Shown: positions 2,227-55,488 of the stretch, piece after piece | How positions within the stretch are numbered: position 1 is the stretch's first letter | Layout: each line of letters starts with the position of its first letter | DNA from: Candidatus Saccharimonadota bacterium | GTDB lineage: Bacteria; Patescibacteriota; Saccharimonadia; Saccharimonadales; SZUA-47 | Reading direction: 5' to 3' | NCBI GenBank assembly: GCA_016700315.1 | Contig: CP065013.1 | Coordinates: 385,449-449,448 of the forward strand | Length of the DNA stretch: 64,000 nucleotides | Translations under genes and position numbers: made by a program | Notes under the pieces: model-generated | Databases searched by the model: none | What the model saw: the letters and a program-made list of their open reading frames with translations, nothing else | What the model was told of the DNA's origin: nothing

Positions 2227-3287
2227 CCTATAGCAATTATCGTTGCGCCTTCTTGGAAATGCTCTATTACTACGTCGGCGTCGGTGGTCGTGATAAATGT
2301 TTGATAGTTTTTGAGTCTCTCGGCCAAAGCTTTGCGGCGGCGACCGTCAAGCTCGCTAAAGACATCGTCGAGCAGCAGGATGGGGCTTTGAGTCTTTGAC
2401 GACATCTCGAGCTCAATTATTTTGAGCGCCAGGAGTAGGCTCCGGACTTCGCCACGACTGGCTCGCTCGCGAGCATCTACGCCTTCGAACAGGACAACAA
2501 AGTCGTCGCGATGCGGCCCGCTAACAGTAAAACCGGTTTCTAGCTCTAGCGTGTGCTTAGACTTAAGCCTGGCCAGCAGTTTACTGCCGTAGCTTTGGTC
2601 GTAGGCTATCTTAGTAGTGTAGCTTAACTCAATTTTATTAGCTTTGCCTCCTAGCTGTTTGTAGGTACTGGTAATTTTTTTGTTTATACTTCTAATCAGC
2701 TCGGCCCTAGCCGCTACAATCTTTTCTGCCAACTCTACCAGCTGCACGTCCCAGACAAAAAACTGACTTTGGCTAGCATTGGTTTTTAGTAAGCGGTTAC
2801 GCTGGAACAAGATTCTTCTGTAGCGCTTGAGGGTATCGTGAAGCGTAGTATCAAGACTGGCGGCGAAGCTATCCAAATATTCTCGTCGCTCAGCTGGCTC
2901 ACCCGCTATCAGACTGAGGTGGTTTGGCTCAAATAAGACAACCGGCATCATCTGAGGGGCCGAAAACCTTTTGTGTGGCTTGCCATCTATGATGAGGCTT
3001 TTTTGCAGGGTATCACTGGCGACGACCTCTAGTTTTAGCGTTCTTTCGGCGCCATTTGTTAATAGCCCGTCTAGCCTCGCCCAGTCTGACCCAAACCTAA
3101 CAACCAGCTGATCCCGTCCGCGGTAGGTGCTACCGGAAGCGATCATTAAAATAGCTTCGAGTAGGTTGGTCTTGCCGCTAGCGTTCGGCCCAACAATAAT
3201 GTTCACACCACTACTAAACTCAAAAGAGCCATCGAGGTAGGAACGAAAACTTTGTAAGCGCAGCGAAGCCAAAAAGCTTTTAGCCAT
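2223..3287 (-). CDS. recF: DNA replication/repair protein RecF
   Basis: 354 aa. Walker A 'GPNASGKTNLLEAI' and C-terminal 'ILLLDDVFSELD'. It lies downstream of dnaA-dnaN on the same strand. Confidence 0.9.
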   Translation of the reverse strand: MAKSFLASLRLQSFRSYLDGSFEFSSGVNIIVGPNASGKTNLLEAILMIASGSTYRGRDQLVVRFGSDWARLDGLLTNGAERTLKLEVVASDTLQKSLIIDGKPHKRFSAPQMMPVVLFEPNHLSLIAGEPAERREYLDSFAASLDTTLHDTLKRYRRILFQRNRLLKTNASQSQFFVWDVQLVELAEKIVAARAELIRSINKKITSTYKQLGGKANKIELSYTTKIAYDQSYGSKLLARLKSKHTLELETGFTVSGPHRDDFVVLFEGVDARERASRGEVRSLLLALKIIELEMSSKTQSPILLLDDVFSELDGRRRKALAERLKNYQTFITTTDADVVIEHFQEGATIIAIG

Positions 3288-3309
3288 TAGCCTTTAGCCA
3301 TTAGCTTTT
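3275..3309. repeat. 7-nt-periodic array AGCTTTT AGCCATT AGCCTTT AGCCATT AGCTTTT, spanning the recF start and the 3' end of the four-helix-bundle ORF
   Basis: Read directly from the sequence. 3279-3292 and 3293-3306 form a 14-bp tandem duplication (13/14 identical). 3275-3285 is the reverse complement of 3661-3671. Confidence 0.85.
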
Positions 3310-3640
3310 TCATAAAACCACTAAGGATTGACGCCACTTCATTAGTGTGCGCAAATAGCTTATTAAAACTCTCTTCGTCAAAGTATGCTCTGTCAAAGCC
3401 AAGAATCAACATAGACTTTATCTCGGCCGACGATCCGCGAGCTATTCTTAGATAGTTATTAAAAGATTTGTCGCTAATTCTTTCGCTGCCTTCAGCGATG
3501 TTGTTCATTATCGACACGGAGGCGCGTTGAACTTGGTCTTTATACGAGTAGTCTTTACAGTTTTCAAGTGCTTCGTATATTAACAGTGTTAGTGATCGGG
3601 CTTTCTGCCAAGCAATTATATCTCTGAAATCTTGTGCCAT
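3287..3640 (-). CDS. Four-helix-bundle protein (23S rRNA intervening-sequence protein family, PF05635/TIGR02436; Avd-like fold)
   Basis: 117 aa and all-helical in character, with the family hallmark 'ASVSIMNNIAEGSER...ARGSSAEIKSML'. TAATG stop/start overlap with recF. Confidence 0.8.
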   Translation of the reverse strand: MAQDFRDIIAWQKARSLTLLIYEALENCKDYSYKDQVQRASVSIMNNIAEGSERISDKSFNNYLRIARGSSAEIKSMLILGFDRAYFDEESFNKLFAHTNEVASILSGFMKKLMAKG

Positions 3641-3661
3641 ATAGACATTTTATCCTTTCTG

Positions 3662-3696
3662 GCTAAAAGCTAAAAGCTTGCGGCTAATAGCTTTTT
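3662..3696. repeat. 7-nt-periodic array GCTAAAA GCTAAAA GCTTGCG GCTAATA GCTTTTT between the dnaN stop and the four-helix-bundle ORF start
   Basis: Read directly from the sequence. It is complementary to the 3275-3309 array. It also contains a local hairpin: on the minus strand, AAAAGCTAAAA(AAA)GCT pairs with AGCTTTTAGCTTTT. Confidence 0.8.
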
Positions 3697-4791
3697 TTAG
3701 CTTTTAACGGGCATGACTACTTGAAGGGCACTTGGGTCGGCTGGGTCTTTGAGTATGCATGGCTCTAGCTTACCATTCATACAGAAAACTACCTTATCGC
3801 CAGTCAGGGCGTTGAGGGCGTCCATAAGATAGCGAGAATTAAGTGTCACCGCACCATTGCCTGAGGCTATGGCTGCCACCGCAGAGCTGTTTTCACCAAC
3901 CTGAGACGCAACAGATTTAACAGACAGCTCATTCTTGGTGTCGTCAACCTCTATCTGGATGCTGCCGGCTGCTTCGCGGGCAAACAAGCTTGCCACCTTG
4001 GTTGCGGCAAGTAGCTCGCTTTTTAGAGTTTCGGCCGAGACTTCAAACTTGGCCGGTATCAGCTTGCGGTAGTCTGGATAATTGCCGTCGATCAGACGTG
4101 AAATCACCTCTACGTCACCCGCCTGGAAACGCACTTGCTGTTCGTCAAAAGTAAGGGTAGTCTCTTCGTTGTTGTGATCCCCAAATATCCTTAAGAGTTC
4201 GCTCATGGTGGTGGCTGGGACCAGTAGCTTTACCTCTTCTTTGACACCGCTGGTAGTTTTTTCGGCTAGACGATAGCTGTCGGTTGCGGCAAGTGTTAGT
4301 TTGGAAGCATGGCTGTGAACGTAAACGCTAGTCAGCACTGGCCTTGTATCGTCGCTACTGGCAGCGAAAACGCTTTGCTGAAGGGCTTTCTTGAAGTCGG
4401 CGGTTTTTAGTTTAATGGTTTTGCCGTTCGTAATTGCTGGCATCACAGGAAATTCGTCCGGGTTCATTCCGTTGATAGTAGACGTGTACTTGCCGGTGCT
4501 AATCTTGAGTTTAAAATCATCGCTCTGAAGCTCGACCACATCATTTGGCAGATTACTAACAAAATCCTGTAGCAGGCGAGCGGGTATGGTTAGCGAGCCT
4601 TCCTCGGTTACTTTTGCGCCAATAGTTTCGGTGATTGCAATGTCGAGATTAGTGCCGGCAATTACTAGCCGGTTGTCGACTGTTTTAAGTAGAATGTTAG
4701 CTAAGATAGGAAGGGAGTTGCGGTTACTGGCAACACGCGACACGGCACTTAGTGCGCGGTGCAGGTTTTCTTGGGTTACTTGAAGCTTCAT
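3697..4791 (-). CDS. dnaN: DNA polymerase III beta subunit (sliding clamp)
   Basis: 364 aa. Typical N-terminus 'MKLQVTQENLHRALSAVSRVASNRNSLPILANILL', three-domain length, and position immediately downstream of dnaA. Confidence 0.95.
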   Translation of the reverse strand: MKLQVTQENLHRALSAVSRVASNRNSLPILANILLKTVDNRLVIAGTNLDIAITETIGAKVTEEGSLTIPARLLQDFVSNLPNDVVELQSDDFKLKISTGKYTSTINGMNPDEFPVMPAITNGKTIKLKTADFKKALQQSVFAASSDDTRPVLTSVYVHSHASKLTLAATDSYRLAEKTTSGVKEEVKLLVPATTMSELLRIFGDHNNEETTLTFDEQQVRFQAGDVEVISRLIDGNYPDYRKLIPAKFEVSAETLKSELLAATKVASLFAREAAGSIQIEVDDTKNELSVKSVASQVGENSSAVAAIASGNGAVTLNSRYLMDALNALTGDKVVFCMNGKLEPCILKDPADPSALQVVMPVKS

Positions 4792-29660: not shown

Positions 29661-31520
29661 CTAATTAACATTATATTCCATCGGTAAACCAGCAGGTATT
29701 AGACCTAGCTCAGTGCTGGATATAGTAACGACGTCTGCCCACTTATAGCCATGGCTAAAGAAAGTCTCTTCGTTGGGGAAGCCTCGTTTCTTGCCATTCT
29801 CAATGAGGTAAATGCCGCCAGAACTGGGGGTTTTTACCACCTTGTTGTTCCTGTAGTTAGTGTCGTAGGGCATCGGTAAACCAGCAGGTATTAGACCTAG
29901 CTCAGTGCTGGATATAGTAACGACGTCTGCCCACTTATAGCCATGGCTAAAGAAAGTCTCTTCGTTGGGGAAGCCTCGTTTCGTACCAATATGTACAAGG
30001 TATACGCCAGTAGACCCAGGTGTTTTTACAAGTTGCCAATTTCTATAATTAACATTATATTCCATCGGTAAACCAGCAGGTATTAGACCTAGCTCAGTGC
30101 TGGATATAGTAACGACGTCTGCCCACTTATAGCCATGGCTAAAGAAAGTCTCTTCGTTGGGGAAGCCTCGTTTCTTGCCATTCTCAATGAGGTAAATGCC
30201 GCCAGAACTGGGGGTTTTTACCACCTTGTTGTTCCTGTAGTTAGTGTCGTAGGGCATCGGTAAACCAGCAGGTATTAGACCTAGCTCAGTGCTGGATATA
30301 GTAACGACGTCTGCCCACTTATAGCCATGGCTAAAGAAAGTCTCTTCGTTGGGGAAGCCTCGTTTCGTACCAATATGTACAAGGTATACGCCAGTAGACC
30401 CAGGTGTTTTTACAAGTTGCCAATTTCTATAATTAACATTATATTCCATCGGTAAACCAGCAGGTATTAGACCTAGCTCAGTGCTGGATATAGTAACGAC
30501 GTCTGCCCACTTATAGCCATGGCTAAAGAAAGTCTCTTCGTTGGGGAAGCCTCGTTTCTTGCCATTCTCAATGAGGTAAATGCCGCCGTTAAGATTCACA
30601 AGCGTATGAGTAGTGGTGCCGAACCAGTCGGAGAAGATGCGCCAGAAGTTACGGTTGCCGTAGGCGCTGCAGCCGTCACCTGTGCCATACATGTTGGCCA
30701 GCGCAGCAGCGTTTGGCTGGTATGGTGTGTATGTATAAAGCGCCGCCGTTGCAGAACTTTCTATAAATACATTAGAGCTGCCACAAGCAGAGTTAGGATT
30801 GTATAGAATCGAGTTTACTTGATTTGGTTTTTTATATGGCCACCAGCTTTGACCCATGTTATTGAGATAGTAGCGGAAAAGTCGAGCAGATTCGTAAATC
30901 TGAATAGAAAAACCTTCATAGTTTGGGTCACATGGTGCTGTGTCGGGGCAGTAAGCACCCATTGGGTATTCGTATTGGGAGCGATATGGCCAGTCGTCAC
31001 TGGTTAGAGGACCATAAGATTCTTTTTGGATAGTTGTAAGCAGAACCTTTGGGCTAATTTGGTAGCGCTGCGCTGCATCCCAAATGATCTGGGCGGCCGA
31101 TTTGGCCCCTGCAGGTATGGCAGCTCCACCGTAGTTGTTTGCGGGCTGGCCAGGCGCAGGATCGGTCTTGGGCACTTCCCAGAAGTCCTTAAGACAGGTG
31201 AATGGTGCGGGGTTGCCATTCAGCGCCCCCCACTCGGCACGAGTGTAATAACGGCCGGCTGCGGCGTACCATCTGCCGGTTAATTGTGTGCCGTTGGTGT
31301 CACAGACAGGCACGCGCGCATTGAGGAAGTTTTGGACTTCTTGCGCAGTCATCGAAGTAGAGTTGGTGAAAACGGAATCGTCAATAATACGCCCAGCTTT
31401 CCAGTCGCTAGCACTGACTGCACTAGTTTTTGCCGGCCCGCTAACCGTAATGATACCTACAATTATTAATAGGAAGGGCGTTAGGTGATAAATAAATCTT
31501 TTCATAGTGCTACTACTCAT
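29661..31520 (-). CDS. Secreted putative peptidoglycan hydrolase with five C-terminal 64-aa repeat modules
   Basis: 619 aa with a signal/anchor 'FLLIIVGIITVSGPAKTSAVSA'. The N-terminal domain has 'ISPKVLLTTIQKESYG' (lysozyme/transglycosylase-like E-S motif). The C-terminus is five modules 'G.YL...G.KRGFPNEETFFSHGYKWADVVTISSTELGLIPAGLPM'. Confidence 0.7.
   Translation of the reverse strand: MSSSTMKRFIYHLTPFLLIIVGIITVSGPAKTSAVSASDWKAGRIIDDSVFTNSTSMTAQEVQNFLNARVPVCDTNGTQLTGRWYAAAGRYYTRAEWGALNGNPAPFTCLKDFWEVPKTDPAPGQPANNYGGAAIPAGAKSAAQIIWDAAQRYQISPKVLLTTIQKESYGPLTSDDWPYRSQYEYPMGAYCPDTAPCDPNYEGFSIQIYESARLFRYYLNNMGQSWWPYKKPNQVNSILYNPNSACGSSNVFIESSATAALYTYTPYQPNAAALANMYGTGDGCSAYGNRNFWRIFSDWFGTTTHTLVNLNGGIYLIENGKKRGFPNEETFFSHGYKWADVVTISSTELGLIPAGLPMEYNVNYRNWQLVKTPGSTGVYLVHIGTKRGFPNEETFFSHGYKWADVVTISSTELGLIPAGLPMPYDTNYRNNKVVKTPSSGGIYLIENGKKRGFPNEETFFSHGYKWADVVTISSTELGLIPAGLPMEYNVNYRNWQLVKTPGSTGVYLVHIGTKRGFPNEETFFSHGYKWADVVTISSTELGLIPAGLPMPYDTNYRNNKVVKTPSSGGIYLIENGKKRGFPNEETFFSHGYKWADVVTISSTELGLIPAGLPMEYNVN
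29664..30626. repeat. Coding tandem repeat: 192-nt modules in the order B-A-B-A-B; the 384-nt A+B unit is repeated perfectly
   Basis: Module boundaries fall at 29667, 29859, 30051, 30243 and 30435. 29667-29858 equals 30051-30242, and 29859-30050 equals 30243-30434, by direct reading. Confidence 0.9.
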
Positions 31521-33225: not shown

Positions 33226-34674
33226 TTGATGCAAGCTAACCCACATATATTTAGAGGCTATGACTTAAGAGGCCTAGTCGGTGAAGATTTAAGTGAAGAA
33301 TTAGCCGAAAACCTTGGAATGGCTTACGGAACTATGCTAAAGAATCAAGGCGTGACCAAGGCCGTAATCGGGCGTGATTGTCGTGAGAGTGGCGAAAACT
33401 ATGCCACTGCATTAATTCGTGGCCTCAACAAAACAGGTGTCGACACAGTGTACATAGGTATGGTTTTAGTCGGAACTTTTTATTGGTCTCAATACCATTT
33501 AAATATCAAGGCGGGGGTGTATGTAAGCGCATCTCATAATCCACCTGAATATAATGGTTTCAAGTTTGCAAATGATTTTTCAGAAACTTTAGTCACAGAT
33601 GGGATGAACGATCTGAAAAATCTGGTCTTATCTGAGAAATATAGTTTGTCGGACAATGTAGGGAAGAACGATGAGCAGAACATTATCGAGGCATATTATG
33701 CGGATATTTTAGCGAGATTACCTTCTCCAAGGTCGTTAAAGGTTTTAGTAGATTCTGGTTGTACTACCGCCGGGGCATTCGCACCAGAGCTAATTAGACG
33801 TGCAGGGCACGAAGTCATTGAAAAAAATACAGAAGTTTCGGGTAGCTTCCCACTCGGTGTTGCCGATCCCACTGAAGTAGAAGTGGCCGAGAGGCTGAGT
33901 AAGGAAGTCGTCGAAGCCGGAGCAGATATTGGTTTTACTTACGATGCAGACGGAGATCGTATAGGTATAGTTGACGAGAAAGGCGGTATTATTTGGAATG
34001 ATGTTCTGGTCGCTCTCTTTGCCGCAGACGTTTTGACTGATCATCCAGGTTCAAAGATAATGTTTAATACCCTATGTAGCCAGTTAGTGCCCGAAACTAT
34101 TGTGCGACTTGGCGGTATACCTTTCATGTGGCGTACCGGTCATTCTTTCTTAAAGAAGAAAAATCAAGAAGAAGGCGCTGCCTTTATCGGCGAACTGTCG
34201 GGCCATTTCTTCTTTAGTAAAGACTTCTATAATCATGACGATGGTCTTTATTCAACAATGAGACTTTTAAAATATCTCAGTTCAAATAACGAGCCACTTA
34301 GCAGGCATATTAATGATTTGCCTCGGTACATATCAAGTCCAGAGATAAAAGTTTATTGTGCTGATGACAAGAAGAAAGCAGCGATTGAAGAGCTAGCGCC
34401 AAGTCTAAAAAAAAGATTCCCAGAAGCCCTGATAATAGATGACGAAAGAGCCGGTGATGGGCTAAGGTTTGAAATGGACGGCCAAATGTTTGTTGTACGT
34501 TACTCACAAAATGGACCCTATTTAACAATAAAGTACGAGGCTCGGAATATTGCTGGTTATGAAAGTCTGCGGAAACTTATATATGAGCTACTCCTACAAA
34601 ATAAGGATATTGATTGGGATTCTAAAATAAATGCTAACGTGCACGCCATAAACACGGAGCAAACAAATGCTTGA
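33226..34674 (+). CDS. manB: Phosphomannomutase/phosphoglucomutase
   Basis: 482 aa with active-site 'SASHNPPEYNGFK', metal loop 'TYDADGDR' and 'GELSGHFFF'. Confidence 0.85.
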   Translation: MMQANPHIFRGYDLRGLVGEDLSEELAENLGMAYGTMLKNQGVTKAVIGRDCRESGENYATALIRGLNKTGVDTVYIGMVLVGTFYWSQYHLNIKAGVYVSASHNPPEYNGFKFANDFSETLVTDGMNDLKNLVLSEKYSLSDNVGKNDEQNIIEAYYADILARLPSPRSLKVLVDSGCTTAGAFAPELIRRAGHEVIEKNTEVSGSFPLGVADPTEVEVAERLSKEVVEAGADIGFTYDADGDRIGIVDEKGGIIWNDVLVALFAADVLTDHPGSKIMFNTLCSQLVPETIVRLGGIPFMWRTGHSFLKKKNQEEGAAFIGELSGHFFFSKDFYNHDDGLYSTMRLLKYLSSNNEPLSRHINDLPRYISSPEIKVYCADDKKKAAIEELAPSLKKRFPEALIIDDERAGDGLRFEMDGQMFVVRYSQNGPYLTIKYEARNIAGYESLRKLIYELLLQNKDIDWDSKINANVHAINTEQTNA

Positions 34675-35194
34675 TTTGTCAGGTGTAGACGCAAATAATA
34701 AATGGGCGGTTCTAAGAAGGATTAAAGATGATTTAATCTTAAAAAACGGTTTAGTCATGGACGATGTCGATGAACATAAGCCTTACGGTGGGTATTATAG
34801 GTTTTTAGACTCAGAAAGAGAGAAGTTCCTCGAGCTGTTCTACAAAGAACTTGATGTTGAGCTGTCCGGTAATATTAACCCCAAGTTCATGATTTTTGCT
34901 CCTGGACAAAAGGTTAGTTTTCAATACCACAATCGTAGGTCGGAAATCTGGAGAGTAATATATGGTGAGATTGAAGCATTCTACGGAGACAGCGATGAGT
35001 TGGGGGATTACAAGATTTACGAACTTGGAGAAATTCTAAATTTTCCACTTGGTGCAAGGCATAAAGCAGGCGCTAGCTCAAAGGGGTGGGCTATAGCTGC
35101 CGAAATATGGAAGCACGAGGATCCATCCAATCTCTCAGACGAATCAGATATTGTAAGACTTTCTGACGACTATGGCCGGGCCATAAAATGCTAA
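34667..35194 (+). CDS. Cupin-domain protein (type II phosphomannose-isomerase-like C-terminal cupin)
   Basis: 175 aa with 'FQYHNRRSEIWRVIYGE...GARHKAG' cupin motifs. It overlaps the manB stop by 8 nt. Confidence 0.6.
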   Translation: MLDLSGVDANNKWAVLRRIKDDLILKNGLVMDDVDEHKPYGGYYRFLDSEREKFLELFYKELDVELSGNINPKFMIFAPGQKVSFQYHNRRSEIWRVIYGEIEAFYGDSDELGDYKIYELGEILNFPLGARHKAGASSKGWAIAAEIWKHEDPSNLSDESDIVRLSDDYGRAIKC

Positions 35195-36053
35195 GAAGGA
35201 AAAAAAACGCGCGCTCCAAAATTAACTTTTTGATTAGGGATGATGTCTTTACGCTAGCGTTTAACGTTGCAGTTGAGTACAACGCTTGTTACAAACATGC
35301 GCCTTGAGCAAAGTGTAATTATTAACTCTGGAAATGAAGATTAGAGAACACCATTTCGACAAAAAAGACAGAGGACGTACTAAAGGTGTCGCAGCAAATC
35401 AGGTTCTTCGCTTATGGAACAAGACCGTCCCAAAGAATCTGTATTTCTAAGAGGCGATCAAGCCAGAATACGAAAATATCTTAGGCGGTTCATTTCAGCA
35501 GGGCAACATTGGTTGATAATCTAACGCTTGTTGATGGTGCTGTCGAACTGCTAACTAAGCTAATCGCAGGAATACAAATTAGCGGTAGCTACTGGGTTAG
35601 TCATCCAAAAGCAGCTTTTGCCTTAAAGAATCTAGGAAGTTTTTGCAATGGAAGACACTCGAAGAATACCGAGAAGGTTCTTGCCGCAGAGATTGAAATT
35701 AACTATTTTGAGTTCAGATGGTTGATTATATACAACATACCAAACCCACACAACTACATGCTAGTCAAGACATTAAGAGACCAAGGAACGTTGATCCTGA
35801 AGATACCTGGTATCGTCGAAGGTGATGCAGAAAAAATTGAATGGCTGGGTGGCGCAACCTGCCGAAAATGTCTAGCCGACAAGACTATGGAAGATTGCCG
35901 GCCTTGGCCCATGAAACGGGACAAGCAATTTTTGAAATTGATCCGATCAAAGCCGAGGCTAGCCAAGTTGGTACCCGTGAGAATATTGAAAAATCAAAGA
36001 TTGAGTTTGATGAGCTTTCGGACAATATTTTATCTGTACTAGGAAAATACTAG
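35188..36053 (+). pseudogene. About 0.9 kb of fragmentary ORFs in all three + frames; probable decayed gene(s) of unidentified family
   Basis: Fragments include: MLRRKKNARSKINFLIRDDVF... (35188; its ATG overlaps the cupin stop); MKIREHHFDKK...NLYF*EAIKPEYENILGG... (frame with an internal TAA at 35448); the 177-aa track ORF at 35509; and '...AHETGQAIFEIDPIKAEASQVGTRENIEKSKIEFDELSDNILSVLGKY*' ending at 36053. No single frame is continuous. Confidence 0.3.
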
Positions 36054-36086
36054 AGTCGATTGACTTCGGCCGCGCCTAAAATTACG

Positions 36087-36128
36087 CTAGGGTCTAGGGT
36101 CTAGGGTCTAGGGTCTAGGGTCTGGGGT
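36087..36128. repeat. Heptamer tandem array (CTAGGGT)x5 plus CTGGGGT, abutting the galE stop codon
   Basis: Read directly from the sequence. The next partial unit, CTA at 36129-36131, is the complement of the galE TAG stop. Confidence 0.9.
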
Positions 36129-37124
36129 CTATTTTTGTTGCCAGCGCCATGAGTCGGCGCAAGCCTGATCGATGGTTTTTATTGCATGCCAACCAAGCTC
36201 CTCGTTAGCTTTTGAACAGTCGGCATAGCAACTGGCTATGTCGCCTTTGCGACGGGGTTTGATCTCATATTTTATAGAGTGTCCGCATGCTAGTTCGAAA
36301 GCTCTAATTATCTCCATCACCGAAGTGCCTTGGCCTGTGCCTAAGTTGTAAACACTAAAACCTGGTTTCAGATGAGCTGCAGCTGCTGCATGCCCCAGTG
36401 CTAGATCAACCACATGGATGTAGTCACGTACGCCTGTCCCGTCAGGCGTATCGTAGTCGTTCCCGAACACACCAACACTTTCTAGTTCACCTGACGCCAC
36501 TTTAGCAACGTAGGGAAGCAAGTTGTTAGGAATACCGTTGGGGTCTTCGCCTATTAGGCCGCTGGAGTGAGCGCCGATAGGGTTGAAGTATCTCAGTGAG
36601 GTGATTTGCCAGTCGGGGTCGGATACACAAAGATCACTCAGAATCTGTTCGATCATGTACTTTGTTTGGCCGTATGGATTTGTTATCCCGACACCGACCT
36701 GTGAAGTTTCTTTGAGCGGCAGCTCGCTAGGGTTGCCATAAACGGTGGCTGACGAGCTGAAAATTAGTTTTTTGACGCCTACCTCATGCATAACTTCGCA
36801 GAGTGTTAGGGTAGAGTCAAGGTTGTTACGATAATACGCAAGTGGTTGAGCGACAGACTCGCCAACGGCTTTTAGGCCGGCAAAGTGTATAACGATTTCA
36901 ACTTTGTTTTCAGTAAATATACTTTGTAAAGCTACTTTGTCGCATAAGTCTGCTTGGTAAAACTTTATTTTTTTGCCAGTAATTTGCTCGAGCCGATCCA
37001 GCACAGAAAGTTTGGAGTTTGCTAGATTGTCTACAATAACGACCTCGTGACCCAGAGAAATCAACTCAACAGCCGTATGACTACCGATATAACCCAATCC
37101 CCCAGTTAGTAAGTATGTACCCAT
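36129..37124 (-). CDS. galE: UDP-glucose 4-epimerase
   Basis: 331 aa with 'LLTGGLGYIGSH', 'SSSATVYG' and 'YGQTKYMIEQ' (YxxxK). Confidence 0.9.
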   Translation of the reverse strand: MGTYLLTGGLGYIGSHTAVELISLGHEVVIVDNLANSKLSVLDRLEQITGKKIKFYQADLCDKVALQSIFTENKVEIVIHFAGLKAVGESVAQPLAYYRNNLDSTLTLCEVMHEVGVKKLIFSSSATVYGNPSELPLKETSQVGVGITNPYGQTKYMIEQILSDLCVSDPDWQITSLRYFNPIGAHSSGLIGEDPNGIPNNLLPYVAKVASGELESVGVFGNDYDTPDGTGVRDYIHVVDLALGHAAAAAHLKPGFSVYNLGTGQGTSVMEIIRAFELACGHSIKYEIKPRRKGDIASCYADCSKANEELGWHAIKTIDQACADSWRWQQK

Positions 37125-37133
37125 CTACTACCC

Positions 37134-38711
37134 CTATAATTCTAAGCTTAAGTTATCATCGCTGAAGGACTTGCCAGTGTTTTTACTGATAAATTCGTTT
37201 CCGAGCGCCGTAGTCTTGTACTGTTGATTTTGGCTTCTGGGTTTGTCTAGTATAGTGGGCGATAAATAGCCATTGTTTATCAGGGCTTTTGTATAGCGAG
37301 TAAAGTTTTCATAACGATTGCTAAGCCCTATCTCTGACATGATCTCACGTCTTTTCTTGGGTCTACGACAGAATAGCAGAATTAGTTCATCCACTTGTCC
37401 TGTCACTTGTCCTGTCACTTGTCCTGTCACTTGTCCTCTGACTTGGCCTAATGCTTTGGCCTGCTTGAACTCAAGATGCGCTGGCAGAATAGTTAGGAAA
37501 TAACTTAGGTCATCATCCGTATCAAAAATAGGTGCTGGAGAGCCATTGCTTTCCATAGACTTTTTGATCTTTGGTATGCCGGTACCTTTACCTTCTGTCA
37601 AATGTAGCTCTTTGAGAAAGTCTCCAATTCGTCTGTTGCGATACTTGCGAGCTACAACCCGGCCGCTATGTAGCTTCTCTTTGTTTAAGGGCGGCAGTGG
37701 GCCAGGGTAGCTGACCATTTCGATACGATCTGAAAAGATACGAATTTCGATAGGGCTGTCGTCTTGATAACTACGGTGGTATACGGTATTAACGACAGCT
37801 TCCTCTATGGCCTGGTAGGGGTAATTATAGAATCTTTCTGCTTCAGCACTACCTTCGATTTTGCGTACTCGTTCGACAATAATATGATTTTTGAAATACA
37901 ACAAAATGTCTTGAAGTTGCTGCTGTATTGGCCCTTTGAAATTTTTTTCAGTGAAACTGTCGCCAACCTCATCTTCGAATATTACAAGCTCAATTTGAGC
38001 GCATTGGAAAAATTGGGTGGGGTTATCATTAAATAATAGTAGCCCGATATTTTTAGGTTTCAAATATTCATCTGGTCCGGAAACAATGTTCATTTTTCGG
38101 CATAAATCAGCAAATTGCAACGATTCCGATTGTTCTAGTAAGTAGCTGCCAACACTTGCCAGGTGAGCTTTAACTAGTGGCAACTTGATATCAGTAATTT
38201 CGGCTCTTTGGTTAACCTGATCATCAAAAGGTATATGGGCTGACATGTTTAAGAGATCTCGCTCCTCCGAGTCAGAAGCTTTCTTGGTTATGGATCCTCG
38301 TCTAATGTAGTAGTAAAACTCCTTATTGTTTTTGTTTAGATTGGCGGGTGCCTTATACGGCCTCACTTCTCCGCCGGGTACCCAAATCACTAATATTGTG
38401 GCAGTACCTATTTCTGCTAATTCAATTATTGGGAAGTAGTTAGGCCTTAACTGATGACATCTTTCGATTAACTCCTTTTGAATTGTGTCCAAACTGCTCT
38501 TGCTTAAACCTTGTGCTGGTAAAACGGGTCTACCGTTTTTCTCCTCTATGCCCAACAAAATGTACCCGCCGCCCCAGTTATTGATATCGTTTGCGAAAGC
38601 ACATATCGACTGCAGTACGGCAAGTGGGTTCCAGCCGGCTTTAAATTCCAGTCTTTCCCATTCCACTAGTCGTCCGCTTATTAAATCATCTAAATTTATT
38701 GGTAAGGCCAT
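37134..38711 (-). CDS. AlbA_2/Schlafen-type DNA-binding domain protein with an HATPase_c_4-like domain and C-terminal wHTH (putative ATP-dependent regulator)
   Basis: 525 aa. N-terminal 'EWERLEFKAGWNP...ICAFANDINNWGGGYILLGIEE', central 'VNTVYHRSYQDDSPIEIRIF.DRIEMVSYPG...RNRRIGDFLKELHLTEGKGTGI', and a C-terminal wHTH after a GQVT repeat linker. Confidence 0.7.
   Translation of the reverse strand: MALPINLDDLISGRLVEWERLEFKAGWNPLAVLQSICAFANDINNWGGGYILLGIEEKNGRPVLPAQGLSKSSLDTIQKELIERCHQLRPNYFPIIELAEIGTATILVIWVPGGEVRPYKAPANLNKNNKEFYYYIRRGSITKKASDSEERDLLNMSAHIPFDDQVNQRAEITDIKLPLVKAHLASVGSYLLEQSESLQFADLCRKMNIVSGPDEYLKPKNIGLLLFNDNPTQFFQCAQIELVIFEDEVGDSFTEKNFKGPIQQQLQDILLYFKNHIIVERVRKIEGSAEAERFYNYPYQAIEEAVVNTVYHRSYQDDSPIEIRIFSDRIEMVSYPGPLPPLNKEKLHSGRVVARKYRNRRIGDFLKELHLTEGKGTGIPKIKKSMESNGSPAPIFDTDDDLSYFLTILPAHLEFKQAKALGQVRGQVTGQVTGQVTGQVDELILLFCRRPKKRREIMSEIGLSNRYENFTRYTKALINNGYLSPTILDKPRSQNQQYKTTALGNEFISKNTGKSFSDDNLSLEL
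37392..37448. repeat. In-frame 12-nt tandem repeat (CACTTGTCCTGT x3 plus 2 variants) encoding (GQVT)n
   Basis: Perfect units at 37392-37403, 37404-37415 and 37416-37427. Variant units start at 37428 and 37440. The protein reads 'LGQVRGQVTGQVTGQVTGQVDE'. Confidence 0.9.
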
Positions 38712-38752
38712 TAGTACATTTTATCTTAGTATATGCAAAAATAACACCTAGG

Positions 38753-40573
38753 CTATTCGACTGTAACAGATTTGGCGAGGTTGCGCGGCTTATCGATGTC
38801 GCGGTCAAGCTCACGGGCTACATGGTAGGCAAAGATGTGAGTAACTGTCGCAGCTAGGATTGGTTGGAGCTGCTCGATGGTTTTGGGAATAATAATTAGG
38901 TCATCGGCGATTTGTGCGGCCTCTGCTTTTTGGTCGTCGATTACGGCTATGATTGGTCCGCCGCGAGCATTGATTTCTTGCATGTTGCTAGCTGATTTTT
39001 CGGCTACGTCACTAGACAGAGCAAGTGCAAAAGTTGGGAAATTCTCGTCGATCAGCGCCAACGGGCCGTGCTTCATTTCGCCGCCGGCGTAGCCTTCGGC
39101 GTGAATGTAGCTGATTTCTTTTAGTTTCAGCGAACCTTCGAGCGCCACGGGGTAAAGGTAGCGCCTTCCGATAAACAGGAAGTCTCGGTGATGAGCGTAT
39201 TTTTTGGCGATTCGCTTGATTTCGCCATCTTGGTCTAAAATTTGCTCGAGCTGGGCTGGGATTTTGTCGAGGCTAGTCAGCAGCTCATCAAAGCCAGTGT
39301 AGGTTTTTGACAACTTTAGGGCGATTAAACATAAGACCGTAACTTGGGCGATGAAAGCTTTGGTGCTGGCGACGGCCTTCTCTGGGCCAGCATGACAATA
39401 AACTCCAGCGTCGGTCATGCGGGCTAAGCTAGAGCCTGGGGCGTTGACGACGCCGAGCATAAGTATGCCGCTACCTTCGAGTTTTTTCAGTGCAGCAATA
39501 CAGTCTGCGGTTTCGCCAGATTGCGAGATTACCAATACGGCAGTCGATCGGCTGAGCGGCTCTTTGCGGTAGCGGAATTCGCTAGCCTGCTGTACCTCGA
39601 CAGGCAGGCCAGCTATTTCTTCAAGTAGATATTCTCCAACCATACCAGCATAGTAGGATGTTCCGCAGGCAATAATAATGATTCTGGTGATATAGTTTAG
39701 CTGGTTTTCAACGGCTTCTAGACCTCCAAGTTTGATAATTCCTTCTTCAATCCGGGCTCGTCCTAGCATGGCGCTGCGAACAGTCTGTGGCGCTTCGTGT
39801 ATTTCCTTGCTCATGTAGTCGGGGAAGTTTCCGGTCCCTGACGCGTCTTGCTCAATCTCAATTAGTTCCGTTGGTCGCATAATATCTTTTAGAGTTTTGA
39901 TATCAACGATGTGGTAGCCGGAGGCCTTGACGTAAGCTATCTCTCCGTCGTTTAGAAAGACAATCTGCTTTGTTTTTGAAACAATTGGGATTGCATCCGA
40001 GCCGATAAATAACTCACCCTCGCCAACGCCTATTGCTAACGGGCTGGATAATTTAGCAGCGTATAATCTCTCATAGTCGTGCGTAGTCGTCATAACAATG
40101 CCGTATGCTCCCCTAAGTTCCTGAATGGTGGCAGCAAAAGCCTTCTTAACGTCACGAGATTGCTGGTAGTTGTACTGCAACAGATTTGGGACTACTTCGG
40201 TGTCGGTGTCGGAGTGAAAATTGTAGCCTTTTTTCTTAAGAAACTTTTTGATTTCTTGGTAGTTTTCAATGATGCCATTATGAACAACTGCGAAAGCCCC
40301 GTCATTAGACAAATGCGGATGAGCATTGCGCTTTACAACTCCGCCGTGCGTTGCCCATCGGGTGTGGCCTATGCCGCAGTTAGCTTGGTCGCTAGCGTCT
40401 AGTTCTTTTCTTAGAGCCTCGACTCTGCCAACAACCTTGGTTAGGTTTATTGTGTCGTTACGAAGAAGCGCAATGCCAGCAGAGTCATAGCCGCGGTACT
40501 CTAACGACTCAAGGCCGTCGAGCAGATATCCGGTTGCGTTATTATTACCAATGTAACCAACGATGCCGCACAT
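38753..40573 (-). CDS. glmS: Glutamine--fructose-6-phosphate aminotransferase (isomerising)
   Basis: 606 aa with N-terminal nucleophile 'MCGIVGYIG', two SIS domains and the canonical C-terminus 'KPRNLAKSVTVE'. Confidence 0.95.
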   Translation of the reverse strand: MCGIVGYIGNNNATGYLLDGLESLEYRGYDSAGIALLRNDTINLTKVVGRVEALRKELDASDQANCGIGHTRWATHGGVVKRNAHPHLSNDGAFAVVHNGIIENYQEIKKFLKKKGYNFHSDTDTEVVPNLLQYNYQQSRDVKKAFAATIQELRGAYGIVMTTTHDYERLYAAKLSSPLAIGVGEGELFIGSDAIPIVSKTKQIVFLNDGEIAYVKASGYHIVDIKTLKDIMRPTELIEIEQDASGTGNFPDYMSKEIHEAPQTVRSAMLGRARIEEGIIKLGGLEAVENQLNYITRIIIIACGTSYYAGMVGEYLLEEIAGLPVEVQQASEFRYRKEPLSRSTAVLVISQSGETADCIAALKKLEGSGILMLGVVNAPGSSLARMTDAGVYCHAGPEKAVASTKAFIAQVTVLCLIALKLSKTYTGFDELLTSLDKIPAQLEQILDQDGEIKRIAKKYAHHRDFLFIGRRYLYPVALEGSLKLKEISYIHAEGYAGGEMKHGPLALIDENFPTFALALSSDVAEKSASNMQEINARGGPIIAVIDDQKAEAAQIADDLIIIPKTIEQLQPILAATVTHIFAYHVARELDRDIDKPRNLAKSVTVE

Positions 40574-40663: not shown

Positions 40664-41827
40664 CTATACTTTGTGAAGTAAGCCCGTAATCGATTTATTG
40701 AAATTTTCAATCGTAAATTCTCTAGACTTTTTGTTTAGGTCTTTGCGGTTATAAATATCTGGGTCGAAGACTCGTAGTCTTTCGATTAATGATTCAACTG
40801 TTTGCTGGTCAAAAAATTCACCGGTTTCGCCTGGAACGACATAGTCGAGGGCGCCACCACCACGATATGCAACTACAGGGAGACCTGCCGCCATAGCTTC
40901 AATCGGAGCAATGCCAAAGTCTTCGTAGCTGGCGAACAAAAAGGCCGAGTGTTTTTGAAGCTCAGATGCTAAGGCTTCATCTGTCACAAAACCTCCGAAA
41001 TTTATTGTAGGACCCGATAGAGTGCGCAGTCTCGCTAGATCCGGTCCTTTGCCTATGATCGTTAGTGGTATGCGCAGTTGATTGCAAGCTTTGATAAGTA
41101 TGTCTATACGCTTTGCAGGCACAACACGTCCATGGGTAATAAATCCGCTTCGCGGTTTTGGTAGATGGTATGTAGTAGTTGGTAGATGGAAACGACTAGA
41201 ATCTACCGGGGGGAAAACTACTGTAGATTCGCGGTCGTAATAAAGTTTTATATCATTTTTTATATGTGAAGAATTCGCGATGAAAACATCAACTTTTTGG
41301 GCTGCTTGGTAGTCTCTTTTTCTCAGGGGTCTGACTAGTAGTCTTAGGCCGAGTCGCGCCAGCCAAGCTGGTTTTACTCCTGGATTTTTTAAGTACTGTT
41401 CATAATGTCGCCAATAGTAATGAACTGGTGTGTGGCAATAGCTGATATGCTTTTTGGCTCTAACGAACTTGGCCTCGCCATTTCCGGTAATCGAAATAAC
41501 TAAATTATACTTGGATAAGTCTAGCCTAGCGAACCACCATTGTCGTAGTAGGGGCAAGAACTTTCGGAGTTGTCTAAATGGGGCTTTTTGTAGATACCCA
41601 GTAACTACTTTATTGTCTAGGCGCTTGCGCCACTCGTCCGAGCAATAAGATGTATAAATTGGTGCCTCGGGGAACATTTTGTGAAAAGCTTCGACAACAA
41701 GTTCACTACCACCGCCATATATCCAGTCGGTTACCAAGGCTACAGACTTGGTAGTTGGTAGTTGGTAGTTGGTAGTTGGTGGCTTCACTTGTGAGCCTTC
41801 ACAAATGCGTTTAGTAGTTTCTGGCAT
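40664..41827 (-). CDS. Glycosyltransferase, GT4 family (true start uncertain: GTG at 41788 or ATG at 41827)
   Basis: 'VALVTDWIYGGGSELV' is a typical GT4 N-terminus, and 'FLFASYEDFGIAPIEAMAAGLPVVAYRGGGALDYV' is present. The only in-frame start codons lie upstream of the heptamer array. Confidence 0.8.
   Translation of the reverse strand: MPETTKRICEGSQVKPPTTNYQLPTTKSVALVTDWIYGGGSELVVEAFHKMFPEAPIYTSYCSDEWRKRLDNKVVTGYLQKAPFRQLRKFLPLLRQWWFARLDLSKYNLVISITGNGEAKFVRAKKHISYCHTPVHYYWRHYEQYLKNPGVKPAWLARLGLRLLVRPLRKRDYQAAQKVDVFIANSSHIKNDIKLYYDRESTVVFPPVDSSRFHLPTTTYHLPKPRSGFITHGRVVPAKRIDILIKACNQLRIPLTIIGKGPDLARLRTLSGPTINFGGFVTDEALASELQKHSAFLFASYEDFGIAPIEAMAAGLPVVAYRGGGALDYVVPGETGEFFDQQTVESLIERLRVFDPDIYNRKDLNKKSREFTIENFNKSITGLLHKV
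41748..41782. repeat. Heptamer tandem array (TTGGTAG)x4 plus TTGGTGG, immediately 3' of the four-helix-bundle ORF and inside the 5' end of the GT4 reading frame
   Basis: Read directly from the sequence. On the coding (minus) strand it reads CCACCAA CTACCAA CTACCAA CTACCAA CTACCAA. Confidence 0.9.
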
Positions 41828-42159
41828 GAGACTATTTGTGCTAAAACCAATTCAATTTGTTTTTGGTCCTTCATGTATGCAAGGCTACCAGATAATAACG
41901 TAAAATTCTTGACCTCTAGGGTTGAGCCGTAAGCTATTGTATAAAAATGCAGCTTATCATTATTGGTTCTTCTACCAAAACCCTCTGCAATGTTGGCTGA
42001 AACTGAATAGGCGGCTCTTCTGTATTGGCTTGTTAAGCTAAACCTCTCATCAACAGGGAAATTTTTCGTTACTTCATAAATAATGACTGCTAGTTTATGG
42101 GCTTCTTGCCAAACAACAAGGTCTTCAAAAGATTTAATTCTTTTTTTGCCTTCTACCAT
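41785..42159 (-). CDS. Four-helix-bundle protein (23S rRNA intervening-sequence protein family; Avd-like fold), second copy
   Basis: 124 aa with 'FEDLVVWQEAHKLAVIIYEVTKNFP...AAYSVSANIAEGFGR...AYGSTLEVKNF'. It has the same family hallmarks as 3287..3640. Confidence 0.8.
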   Translation of the reverse strand: MVEGKKRIKSFEDLVVWQEAHKLAVIIYEVTKNFPVDERFSLTSQYRRAAYSVSANIAEGFGRRTNNDKLHFYTIAYGSTLEVKNFTLLSGSLAYMKDQKQIELVLAQIVSCQKLLNAFVKAHK

Positions 42160-42183
42160 ATACTACCTACCATCTACTACACA

Positions 42184-43626
42184 TTAGTCGCTGCTGCCTT
42201 TGAATAGCCGCAAGAAAACCTGGACGGCTGTCTTTAGGACAATTACGATGTCGAGCCAGAAGCTCCAGTTTTGGACATAATAGTGGTCAAGTTTGCGGCG
42301 TTCTTCGAACGGCAAATTCTTGCGGCCCGAAATTTGGGCTAGTCCAGTAAGGCCGGATTTTACACTAAGAATTTGGTGTTTCAGTTCGGATTTATTAAGC
42401 TCTTCCTCGATCAATGCTCTGGGGCCAACGAAACTAATGTCGCCCCTTAGAATATTGAATAGTTGCGGTAGTTCGTCTAGGCTGGTTTTGCGAATTATCC
42501 TCCCAAACAACGAAATGCGTGGGTCATTCTTTAGAAAATCGCCATTATCGCGGAATTCTTTTGCTAGCTCCGGCTTGCCCATTTTGGCAAAACCAGCTTC
42601 TGGGTCTAAACCGCTGTACTTCTTCTTAAGCGAGCGAAATTTGTAAATAGTAAAGTGCTCACTAAAACGAGTTAAGCGCTTACGTCGATAAATCGGCGCG
42701 CCGCCAGACACCATAAGACATAGATAAATTAGCAACATGATCGGCGAGAACACAATGATACAGAATAGCGATATTAAAATGTCGAAGAGCCTTTTGGCGA
42801 CTCTACCCCAGCCAAGTAGTGCGGTCTGGTGTACGGCAATGACCGGGATGTTTTGGAATAGATCGACATCGATATTGCCAAGGAACATACCAGAGTTGCC
42901 CGGCACAAAGCGGTAGGCCTTGTGGTGCGTTTGGGCGTAATCAAGCACGTAATCATTGATGCTTTGGTCGCTATAAAGTTCAGTTTGGACGATACTATGC
43001 AGCTGGCTGGTTTGGAGCGCAGTTACTGCCTCATCAAAATCTTTATATACACTTCCTTCCTCAATCCCAGTGTAGTTAAAGCGTCGATCTCCAACTACTC
43101 CAACAACCTTAAAACCAGAGTCAACATTGGCCAGAAGCTGGCATAATTCTTCTGTAACAGGCGTGGAACCAACCAGTAATATGTGGTTTCGGCCTATACC
43201 AATCGAAAACAGGCTGCGCCGTACGGCTCTAGCTATTGTTCTAAATAGCAGTACTAACAAAAAACTAATGCCGAAGCCGTAAACTGGCACCAGCCGGGCG
43301 GGGAAGATTGGGCGATTAAGCGCATACTCAGCGCCTATGAGAAACAAAATACCAACAAAAGAGCCTGCCAAAATTCGCACCGCTTCGCTGAATCTATTTT
43401 CGTAGACTCGGGACTGGTAAAGACCAAGCAGGGCAAATATCAGCAACCAAAAAACTAGCAGTACGGCAAAAACTAGTAAGTATGTTGTACCATCAATCTG
43501 AAATGGTCTAGGTCGGATATCTAGCTTAACGCGGATTAGGTAGGCCATCACAAAGGCTGCCAGCAGCGCCACAAAGTCCCCAATCAAAAGTACAAATGCG
43601 TAAAGGAGATTAGAACTATTTTTCAT
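42184..43626 (-). CDS. Polyprenyl-phosphate sugar-1-phosphate transferase (WbaP/bacterial sugar transferase family), priming enzyme
   Basis: 480 aa with N-terminal TM helices, then 'AKRLFDILISLFCIIVFSPIMLLI...YRRKRL..F.IYKFRSL...DELPQLFNILRGDISFVGPRA'. Confidence 0.85.
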   Translation of the reverse strand: MKNSSNLLYAFVLLIGDFVALLAAFVMAYLIRVKLDIRPRPFQIDGTTYLLVFAVLLVFWLLIFALLGLYQSRVYENRFSEAVRILAGSFVGILFLIGAEYALNRPIFPARLVPVYGFGISFLLVLLFRTIARAVRRSLFSIGIGRNHILLVGSTPVTEELCQLLANVDSGFKVVGVVGDRRFNYTGIEEGSVYKDFDEAVTALQTSQLHSIVQTELYSDQSINDYVLDYAQTHHKAYRFVPGNSGMFLGNIDVDLFQNIPVIAVHQTALLGWGRVAKRLFDILISLFCIIVFSPIMLLIYLCLMVSGGAPIYRRKRLTRFSEHFTIYKFRSLKKKYSGLDPEAGFAKMGKPELAKEFRDNGDFLKNDPRISLFGRIIRKTSLDELPQLFNILRGDISFVGPRALIEEELNKSELKHQILSVKSGLTGLAQISGRKNLPFEERRKLDHYYVQNWSFWLDIVIVLKTAVQVFLRLFKGSSD

Positions 43627-54949: not shown

Positions 54950-55145
<196 letters not shown>

Positions 55146-55148
55146 TTT

Positions 55149-55488
55149 ATGAAATACGTTGCGCTACTAAGAGGAATAAATGATAAAGGTTGGGGGGGGG
55201 GGGGGGGTTGCCCATCCAGACGAGTGGCTGAATGATACCGAACAGAAAAGCGATGTACTGTATTTATTCCCCGAAGTAGACTCACCGGACATAGTAGACA
55301 ATATTGGTTACCGTCCAGAGTTTGAAACAATTCACTACATTCCGGGTGCGCTCATCTCAAATGTACCGCGCAAGTCCCAGCCCAAAAGCTGTCTCATTAA
55401 ACTCGTCGGTACGCCGCAGTACCGGAGTATGACCATCCGTAATGTCACTACCGCACGAAAATTGGCGCAGTTGGTACAGGCTCAATGA
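55149..55488 (+). pseudogene. DUF1697-family protein whose N-terminal third is replaced by a 16-nt poly-G tract
   Basis: 'MKYVALLRGIN' is the canonical DUF1697 start. Then comes junk and G16 (55192-55207), followed by a C-terminal part '...DVLYLFPEVDSPDIVDNIGYRPEFETIHYIPGALISNVPR...RNVTTARKLAQL'. About 70 residues expected for the family are missing. Confidence 0.5.
55192..55207. repeat. Poly-G tract (16 G)
   Basis: Counted directly. Confidence 0.95.

Follow-up and report, generated by a model that had tools for sequence, protein, structure and literature searches.

Complementary heptamer arrays bracket a four-helix-bundle gene inserted at operon junctions in Saccharimonadota and other bacteria

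Anatomy of the cassette between the WbaP-like and GT4 genes

We analyzed a 64,000-nucleotide stretch of the genome of a Candidatus Saccharimonadota bacterium (GenBank assembly GCA_016700315.1, contig CP065013.1, positions 385,449 to 449,448 of the forward strand), called the window hereafter, in which a small gene for a four-helix-bundle (4HB) protein lies between two genes for cell-envelope sugar transferases, a WbaP-like priming sugar transferase and a GT4 glycosyltransferase. Its open reading frame (ORF), of the S23p type, is promoterless and is bracketed by complementary arms of tandem heptamers with a locus-specific sequence. The cassette is inserted exactly at the stop/start junction of the two host genes and is co-oriented with both. 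The features of this locus, which we call copy 2, are as follows, with repeat periods and copy numbers from Tandem Repeats Finder (TRF).

42184..43626, minus strand: WbaP-like priming sugar transferase (polyprenyl glycosylphosphotransferase) gene, upstream (PF02397 and PF13727; TIGR03025, 327 bits)
42153..42180, minus strand: 5' arm, a degenerate purine-rich heptamer array (TRF period 14, 2.0 copies)
41785..42159, minus strand: four-helix-bundle (S23p / 23S_rRNA_IVP) ORF, the cassette cargo (124 aa, contains SANIAEGFGR)
41748..41782, minus strand: 3' arm, CCACCAA and then (CTACCAA)x4 on the mRNA strand (TRF period 7, 4.7 copies, 100% matches)
41732..41753, minus strand: small local hairpin TACCAAG / CTTGGTA with an 8-nt loop, read from the sequence
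40664..41827, minus strand: GT4 glycosyltransferase gene, downstream (profile searches and comparison with relatives)
41159..41192, minus strand: in-frame heptamer-like segment in the GT4 interdomain linker (…HLPTTTYHLPKP…; TRF period 7)

The WbaP-like stop codon (42184-42186) stands 24 nt ahead of the 4HB ATG, the gaps between the three minus-strand genes are 24 nt and about 37 nt, and neither promoter-like nor terminator-like sites were predicted on the minus strand at either junction of the 4HB gene. On the mRNA strand the 5' arm reads GTAGTAG ATGGTAG GTAGTAT ATGGTAG and covers the start of the 4HB ORF from the ribosome-binding region through the ATG to codons 2-3. Positions 41748-41782, read on the plus strand, are (TTGGTAG)x4 plus TTGGTGG and start 2 nt past the 4HB stop. 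An earlier sequence-only reading of this DNA had given the same ORF and array coordinates, and had taken 42162-42180 (ACTACCTACCATCTACTAC) for a degenerate copy of the complementary heptamer; we agree, and find that this segment belongs to the longer period-14 repeat at 42153-42180. The hairpin at 41732-41753 joins the last heptamer to the point where conserved GT4 codons begin (KSVALVTDW). The surroundings include genes for WbaP, GT4, GlmS, GtrA, and a LexA-like protein. The cassette lies between coding genes, outside any rRNA gene helix. No transposase, integrase, or reverse transcriptase was found in the cassette or among the neighboring genes checked. Searches of Rfam at E <= 1 over 41000-42700 matched no family, and PADLOC defense-system models at E <= 0.01 matched neither of the two 4HB copies in the window.

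By its profile matches, the 4HB product is a member of PF05635/TIGR02436, the S23p or 23S rRNA intervening sequence (IVS) protein family. It scores 110.4 bits against PF05635 (cutoff 33.8; E 6.5e-32; residues 12-117) and 107.2 bits against TIGR02436 (cutoff 24; E 4.6e-31), and the match to the bAvd family PF22296 is weak (E 8.7e-4; 20.2 bits, cutoff 40). There are 575 homologs at E <= 1e-10, and those with a named source come from Saccharibacteria/Saccharimonadales. The product also matches PDB entry 2gsc (XCC0516 of Xanthomonas campestris; E 2e-16; residues 10-113), which we take to be the S23p structure determined by Lin and coworkers; the likeness between the two is one of protein homology only. 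The X. campestris S23p crystal structure, as described secondhand in PMC4990558, is a toroidal homopentamer of four-helix bundles (Lin et al. 2006).

The two arms can pair across the ORF. On the mRNA strand, 42162-42180 and 41751-41769 form 15 Watson-Crick pairs and 1 G-U pair with 3 mismatches over 19 positions, a count identical to the earlier one. The best ungapped pairing is longer, joining 42153-42177 to 41751-41775 with 20/25 matches, and takes in the ATG and codons 2-3. The minimum free energy (MFE) and centroid folds both have a terminal stem containing the 5' arm. Taken alone, this locus gives modest evidence: for cross-locus pairings the 95th percentile of the ungapped score is 11.0 and the 99th is 18.4, which places its own 12.5 within the top 5% but not the top 1%, and 2/82 cross pairings reach its duplex energy. 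The 5' arm has a stronger inverted match within GT4 (41161-41192 versus 42146-42177, 27/32, 84%), and the linker segment at 41159-41192, which has units of the 3' arm family, may be an alternative pairing partner. The length of this linker varies among GT4 homologs, and in-frame arrays occur at the same spot in other genomes. GGTTTTGGTAGA has a 12-nt perfect complement within GT4.

Some further observations concern this linker. In the window it encodes …LPTTTYHLP…, and the variable loop of GT4 in locus L010 has SNIKYQIS and SNIKPQIS. By back-translation from the protein, the L010 repeat would be (ATCAAAT)n, a unit type seen in the flanks of other genomes. Extra sites with a locus's own units average 0.42 per locus, compared with 0.16 for foreign units.

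A related cassette, copy 1, lies between dnaN and recF in the same window.

3660..3707, minus strand: copy 1 5' arm region with AGCTTTT units (TRF 3662-3678)
3287..3640, minus strand: copy 1 four-helix-bundle ORF, between dnaN and recF (phmmer E 1.5e-14 to copy 2)
3275..3309, minus strand: copy 1 3' arm, a 14-nt tandem repeat (…ATGGCTAAAGGCTA ATGGCTAAAAGCTT…; TRF period 14, 2.5 copies)

Its 5' arm region begins directly past the dnaN stop, and its 3' arm holds both the 4HB stop and the recF start. The arms share a 12-nt perfect match (3660-3671 versus 3275-3286), and the MFE and centroid folds both contain the terminal stem (z = -4.2). As the sequence-only reading had noted, the copy 1 units (AGCTTTT/TTAGCCA type) are unrelated to those of copy 2 and it is the design that the two have in common.

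Complementarity and covariation of the arms across homologous loci

We took 79 loci encoding relatives of the 4HB protein from contigs chosen as one genome per species, and 72 of them had usable flanks. The loci are mostly from metagenome-assembled genomes (MAGs), and start codons were assigned heuristically. Duplexes between the two flanks of the same locus had a mean energy of -33.3 kcal/mol, compared with -20.3 kcal/mol for flanks combined across loci, and 0/20,000 derangements reached the observed mean (z = -19.7). Own flanks had a median ungapped Watson-Crick score of 13, as against 6 for cross pairs, and exceeded the 95th percentile of the latter in 45/72 loci; most copies thus do have complementary flanks. 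Among the clear downstream arrays, 37/46 have period 7 or 14. Arrays of these periods are not spread evenly over the loci: TRF found 5.6 per kb within about 90 nt of either end of the 4HB gene and 0.16 per kb over the remainder of these loci, a density about 36 times higher at the gene. The family-wide pattern is far beyond chance.

In the general layout, one tandem array lies shortly before the start codon or spans it, and its complement follows closely on the stop. It is seen in nearly every locus of the candidate phyla radiation (CPR), Saccharibacteria included, and in many loci of Planctomycetota, Omnitrophota, Bacteroidota, Acidobacteriota, and Myxococcales, as well as in a Heliomicrobium MAG. 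Most CPR loci have a 5' arm that overlaps the start codon and a 3' arm that begins 1-15 nt past the stop, while in several non-CPR loci the arms are 20-50 nt distant from the start and stop codons. The units differ widely, with CTACCAA, CTACCAC, CTCCCAA, CTCCGAA, CTTCCAA, CAAATAT, CAAGTAT, TATACCC, ACGCTGT, the 14-mer CCATCTTCCAATAG, TTCTTGAG, GTTACTAG, and CCTCAACCTTA among them. They keep one polarity throughout: G and A abound and C is scarce (0.12) in the upstream arm, and the downstream arm has much C and little G (0.11). The 3' arrays are near-perfect and the 5' arrays degenerate. The 4HB gene is located between co-directional long ORFs in 58/69 loci, with a median upstream gap of 33.5 nt, and the cassettes occupy many unrelated genomic slots. 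The complementary-arm design is the normal context of PF05635 genes in protein-coding operons across many phyla. Only 2 relatives were found on viral contigs, one of them with complementary heptamer arms, and phages are not an obvious vehicle for the cassette.

The gene order WbaP, 4HB, GT4 recurs in 29 of the 79 loci taken, and in this shared slot the units appear to be related by point changes, with both arms altering together. The sequence-only reading had suggested aligning copies and flanks for compensatory changes. We built an alignment of 20 rows in which the start codon anchors the 5' arm and similarity to CTACCAA anchors the 3' unit; the rows are mutually related, and each 3' unit is entered twice. 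At the central unit position, different genomes have GGTAG/CTACC, GGGAG/CTCCC, GGAAG/CTTCC, and GGCAG/CTGCC, so that T-A, A-T, G-C, and C-G pairs all occur across orthologous loci. The covariation score was 0.155, compared with 0.094 ± 0.013 after shuffling (0/500 shuffles reached the observed value) and 0.04-0.11 in slid-partner controls. Cells altered on both sides numbered 20, against 12.1 ± 2.4 in shuffled data (again 0/500), and sliding the partner by 1-3 columns lowered pairing from 65% to 29-42%. The paired unit positions do covary.

Codon 2 of the ORF takes part in this covariation, reading ATGGTAG, ATGGGAG, ATGGAAG, or ATGGCAG along with the 3' unit. As the ATG and codons 2-3 are inside the stem, the second residue of the 4HB protein (V, G, E, or A) tracks the 3' array. 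We also considered pairing of the 3' array with the segment encoding GFGR and rejected it, since the GFGR codons of other loci do not covary with the units.

The proposal that the flanks are generated or selected locally for pairing is borne out as far as each locus keeps its own complementarity and the arms covary. It does not hold throughout, for at dnaN|recF the arms travel with the cassette.

Insertion, loss, and replacement of the cassette

The cassette is an insertion. The closest WbaP relatives of the window have no 4HB gene, and in them WbaP directly abuts GT4. The junction reads …GAC TAA AT ATG CAA CAT CCT AAA TCA GTT GCT… in locus L088 (83% WbaP identity) and …GAC TAA ATG AAA AAG … in L089 (71%), so that the ATG follows the TAA after 0-2 nt; the encoded proteins start with MQHPKSVAIVTDW and MKKIVIVTDW. 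Locus L092 is also empty, and its WbaP and GT4 genes overlap. Three further relatives with 64-67% WbaP identity (L090, L091, and L093) are filled, each with a different unit. In L094 the WbaP|GT4 slot (3943-4544) holds an 89-aa gene with a weak DUF6364 match and a 54-aa gene, and no 4HB gene; operon junctions look like general hotspots for small insertions. In L093, a GIY-YIG gene (2223-2504) lies directly upstream of wbaP.

The insertion has altered the start of GT4. Homology of the window's GT4 protein to its relatives resumes at KSVA(L/I)VTDW, the native ATG is gone, and the GTG that serves as start in filled relatives is GTA here. A single ATG, at 41827 within the 3'-terminal part of the 4HB gene, opens the GT4 frame, which consequently runs on through the array (…PPTTNYQLPTT…); the start codon actually used by GT4 in the window is one that we infer.

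Short strong hairpins were also seen here. In the filled loci L009-L043 one lies 40-70 nt past the 4HB stop, for example, AACAATAGCAACC-TGAA-GGTTGCTATTGTT, and its 3' half encodes the first GT4 codons, including the GTG or ATG start. Its sequence varies between genomes with the pairing kept, and it is stronger than the window's hairpin at 41732-41753. At this spot the empty L088 has only a weak 5-bp stem, and none was seen in L089. A similar hairpin lies within the last WbaP codons in many filled loci.

The dnaN|recF junction is likewise polymorphic and is the most telling of the slots; it is empty in 8 relatives. In L101 (340-560) it carries a decayed cassette, of which the first 16 4HB codons and internal arrays remain and the complementary outer arms are kept (…CTAGGAACTA… / …TAGTTCCT…). 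This remnant resembles ORF-less rRNA IVSs. DnaN of L095 is 99.7% identical to that of the window, yet the 4HB proteins at their dnaN|recF junctions are only 53% identical (amino acids). Comparing window positions 3180-3790 with L095 1330-1950, we found that nucleotide identity falls from about 100% to about 60% at the last two codons of dnaN and recovers at recF codon 6. These breakpoints are at the outer arm edges, so the swapped unit is arm, ORF, and arm together. It takes in the upstream stop codon as well as the downstream start and first few codons, and the cassette supplies the start of the next gene, through a TAATG overlap at recF and through the GT4 frame opening within the 4HB gene. 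Copy 1 has AAAAGCTAA at both ends, though these overlap a palindrome and the host gene termini; at copy 2 no target-site duplication is clearly visible.

In the syntenic WbaP|GT4 loci, the mean pairwise identity of the 4HB protein is 0.56, compared with 0.52-0.55 for its neighbors. Its identity correlates poorly with that of the two flanking genes (Spearman 0.29 and 0.21), whereas WbaP and GT4 correlate with each other at 0.84. This contrast gives no support to strict vertical inheritance of the 4HB gene in the slot. Together with the high conservation of the protein, it suggests, at the level of sequence comparison, purifying selection on the 4HB protein with turnover of the cassette.

We also looked for variation in array copy number between strains and found none: the metagenome contigs L001, L003, and L111, from the same or near-identical strains, have an identical 3' arm with the same 5 units, and the Logan contigs stop inside the array. 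The latter (L002 and L004-L008) all end 34 nt into the heptamers. The array defeats short-k-mer assembly, and such cassettes will therefore often be at contig ends and under-sampled.

Other repeats in the window are recorded here for completeness. An orphan array, (CTAGGGT)x6.4, lies at 36087-36131 between the convergent genes 35509..36042 (plus strand) and 36129..37124 (minus strand), with no partner within 2-3 kb on either side (33500-38800 searched). A 192-nt tandem repeat at 29662-30587 (4.8 copies, 83% matches; 2.4 copies and 100% as a 384-nt unit) is inside a 619-aa ORF (29661..31520, minus strand). At 37392-37449 an in-frame 12-nt repeat encodes (GQVT)n in a 525-aa protein (37134..38711, minus strand) with AlbA_2/Schlafen, HATPase_c_4, and Fic-like_C domains. 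Runs of 63 G residues with one T interruption (55053-55115) and of 16 G residues (55192-55207) are probably a sequencing or assembly artifact.

Relation to rRNA intervening sequences and possible modes of action

The architecture is already described for 23S rRNA IVSs that encode S23p, which the sequence-only reading had not recognized (PMC4990558). The IVS in helix 45 of the Coxiella burnetii 23S rRNA is 428 nt long and has an S23p ORF, a 28-bp terminal stem, and tandem GACAGAT heptamers directly ahead of the ATG, whose copy number varies between strains (PMC4990558). It is excised by RNase III, with cuts mapped in the stem at the first repeat, and the IVSs of Leptospira and Brucella also encode S23p (PMC4990558). 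rRNA insertions in CPR bacteria sometimes carry 23S_rRNA_IVP ORFs. The window's elements share with these IVSs the S23p ORF, the sense orientation within a host transcript, the missing promoter, the complementary termini that form a stem, and the heptamers just ahead of the ATG. They differ in lying between protein-coding genes (WbaP|GT4 and dnaN|recF) and not in an rRNA helix (h9, h25, or h45 of 23S rRNA, or 16S rRNA), in arms that incorporate or replace host stop and start codons, and in units that vary by locus and covary. The protein, moreover, appears to be under purifying selection in the window, while the Coxiella ORF is decaying.

With this precedent we lean, by a small measure, toward an operon-embedded cassette of the 23S rRNA IVS type, whose stem in the transcript would be processed by RNase III and would mask the start codon. 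In the wbaP-4HB-GT4 transcript, the purine-rich 5' arm would pair with the pyrimidine-rich 3' arm; as they pair across the 4HB ORF, the ORF would become the loop of a long-range stem, in which the start codon and ribosome-binding site of 4HB would be buried. The analogy of the homologous IVSs in Coxiella and Leptospira suggests that this stem is an RNase III substrate, whose cleavage would free the cassette RNA and leave both host cistrons intact. Excision of this kind may be what makes insertions tolerable at operon junctions and in rRNA loops alike.

Several results weigh against this reading. The copy 2 duplex is imperfect (20/25), and the fold of the whole element reaches only z = -1.7; the arms of the L095 cassette are weak, and in some Bacteroidota loci the arrays are one-sided or in direct orientation. 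Random ORFs of 90-200 aa from these loci have flank energies (mean -26.3) that overlap those of the 4HB genes (mean -33.3), and only 15% of 4HB flanks lie beyond the 5th percentile of these control ORFs. This comparison separates poorly because duplex energies follow GC content and base composition, and our conclusions on pairing rest on the cross-locus and ungapped tests. Mismatches in the stems are A·C more often than G·U (60 versus 18), but the cross-locus null shows the same bias (460 versus 184), so wobble counts give no positive signature of pairing in the sense RNA strand. We rejected the converse conclusion, pairing of the antisense or DNA strands, on the same ground, as cross pairs share both the A·C bias and the antisense energy advantage, which reflect base composition. 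The 4HB protein, being at least as conserved as its slot neighbors, is presumably translated, and a start codon masked at all times would stand in the way. Finally, an RNase III gene (rnc) was not found in the sequence examined, a result that tells little about the organism as a whole.

It is possible, though we would not expect it, that the arms serve translational control in place of RNA processing. The 3' arm would then be an anti-ribosome-binding site on the 4HB start, and ribosomes terminating on WbaP or on 4HB would open the stem, coupling 4HB translation and GT4 re-initiation to operon traffic. The placement of the arms in most CPR loci, over the start codon and 1-15 nt past the stop, fits this, as do the constant purine/pyrimidine polarity, the covariation of codon 2 with the 3' unit, and the downstream starts that the cassettes provide (the recF TAATG and the GT4 frame). 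The arms that lie 20-50 nt from start and stop in several non-CPR loci do not, and translational control would not by itself explain why rRNA, from which RNase III is known to excise the element, has the same design. Such control is compatible with RNase III processing and may run alongside it. Alternatively, the arms could act in DNA, as recombination or insertion signals (a folded single-strand hairpin or cruciform for a host enzyme) or as inverted insertion junctions, with the RNA stem a by-product. We think this unlikely. Several observations agree with it, namely, cassettes that are present, absent, reduced to a remnant, or replaced, with breaks at the outer arm edges, the weak tracking of flanking genes by 4HB identity (0.29 and 0.21 versus 0.84), the other small genes in the same slot of L094, the many unrelated slots occupied, and wobble counts without a preference for the sense RNA strand. 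However, the cassette and its immediate neighbors include no transposase, integrase, or reverse transcriptase, the arms differ in sequence from copy to copy, which makes a sequence-specific recombinase unlikely, and replacement between near-identical strains is equally explained by homologous recombination in the flanking host genes. A strict purine/pyrimidine polarity relative to the ORF would also be unexpected of a strand-symmetric DNA signal. The sequence-only reading had offered an RNA-level function or an unusual insertion mechanism; the either-or is backed by our results, and the wobble bias, being the same in the null, does not separate RNA from DNA.

Its view that the flanks are unlike the fixed terminal repeats of insertion sequences (ISs) and miniature inverted-repeat transposable elements (MITEs) stands, as units differ both between copies and between orthologous loci. 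The cassette is like those elements in being a discrete insertion with inverted termini that is present in some strains and absent from others, but its termini are tandem heptamer arrays that are unconserved between copies and overlap the translation signals of cargo and host genes, and it has no transposase. Nor do we give much credit to functionless, slippage-prone low-complexity arrays that lie beside a gene and are complementary by chance, an account that is very improbable. The orphan (CTAGGGT)x6.4 array, the 77 period-7/14 arrays elsewhere in the loci, and the modest significance of single loci speak for it, yet own flanks outdo equally low-complexity flanks from other loci (0/20,000), arrays are enriched 36-fold at the 4HB ends, covariation exceeds the shuffled and slid controls, and the pattern recurs in distant phyla with unrelated units. 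Intergenic tandem heptanucleotide arrays are known from heterocystous cyanobacteria as short tandemly repeated repetitive (STRR) sequences; to our knowledge, no report describes these as paired complementary arrays around a particular gene family.

Avd, the accessory protein of diversity-generating retroelements, is a distant relative that binds both nucleic acid and a reverse transcriptase, and Avd and S23p share a four-helix-bundle pentamer fold. PF05635 has been linked with diversity-generating retroelements (PMC10053308). That the 4HB gene is an Avd gene and the repeats are template and variable repeats is nevertheless scarcely credible: beside the common fold and the published link, the weak PF22296 match (E 8.7e-4, 20.2 bits) points that way, and it is below the 40-bit cutoff; the neighbors include no reverse transcriptase, and the window locus has tandem arrays of 7 nt, whereas template/variable repeat pairs measure about 100 nt.

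In the literature searched, the coverage of which is incomplete, we found no description of operon-embedded PF05635 cassettes with covarying complementary heptamer arms. The design itself is known from rRNA IVSs, and its extension to protein-coding operons would, judging from these comparisons, be the new part. For genome analysis, the arrays break short-read assemblies and mislead gene callers on the start of the downstream gene. For experiment, they offer many natural compensatory variants for studies of RNase III processing and translational coupling.

A bolder reading is that S23p/4HB cassettes are a widespread and so far unrecognized class of mobile element living inside transcripts, operons and rRNA alike, and both generating and maintaining their own arms; the pentamer would bind one heptamer per subunit on the RNA or DNA of its own element and, like its relative Avd, would bring in a polymerase or reverse transcriptase, by which the element is copied and inserted at stop/start junctions. 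We regard it as quite unlikely, but if true, it would account for the origin of bacterial rRNA IVSs and for the period of 7. The origin, mobility, and function of these IVSs and of the S23p ORF have been questions since the early 1990s, and PF05635 is a very large family. With the operon-embedded cassettes, whose arms covary and which are gained, lost, and swapped, the IVS design would extend from an rRNA curiosity to a general class of transcript-embedded element.

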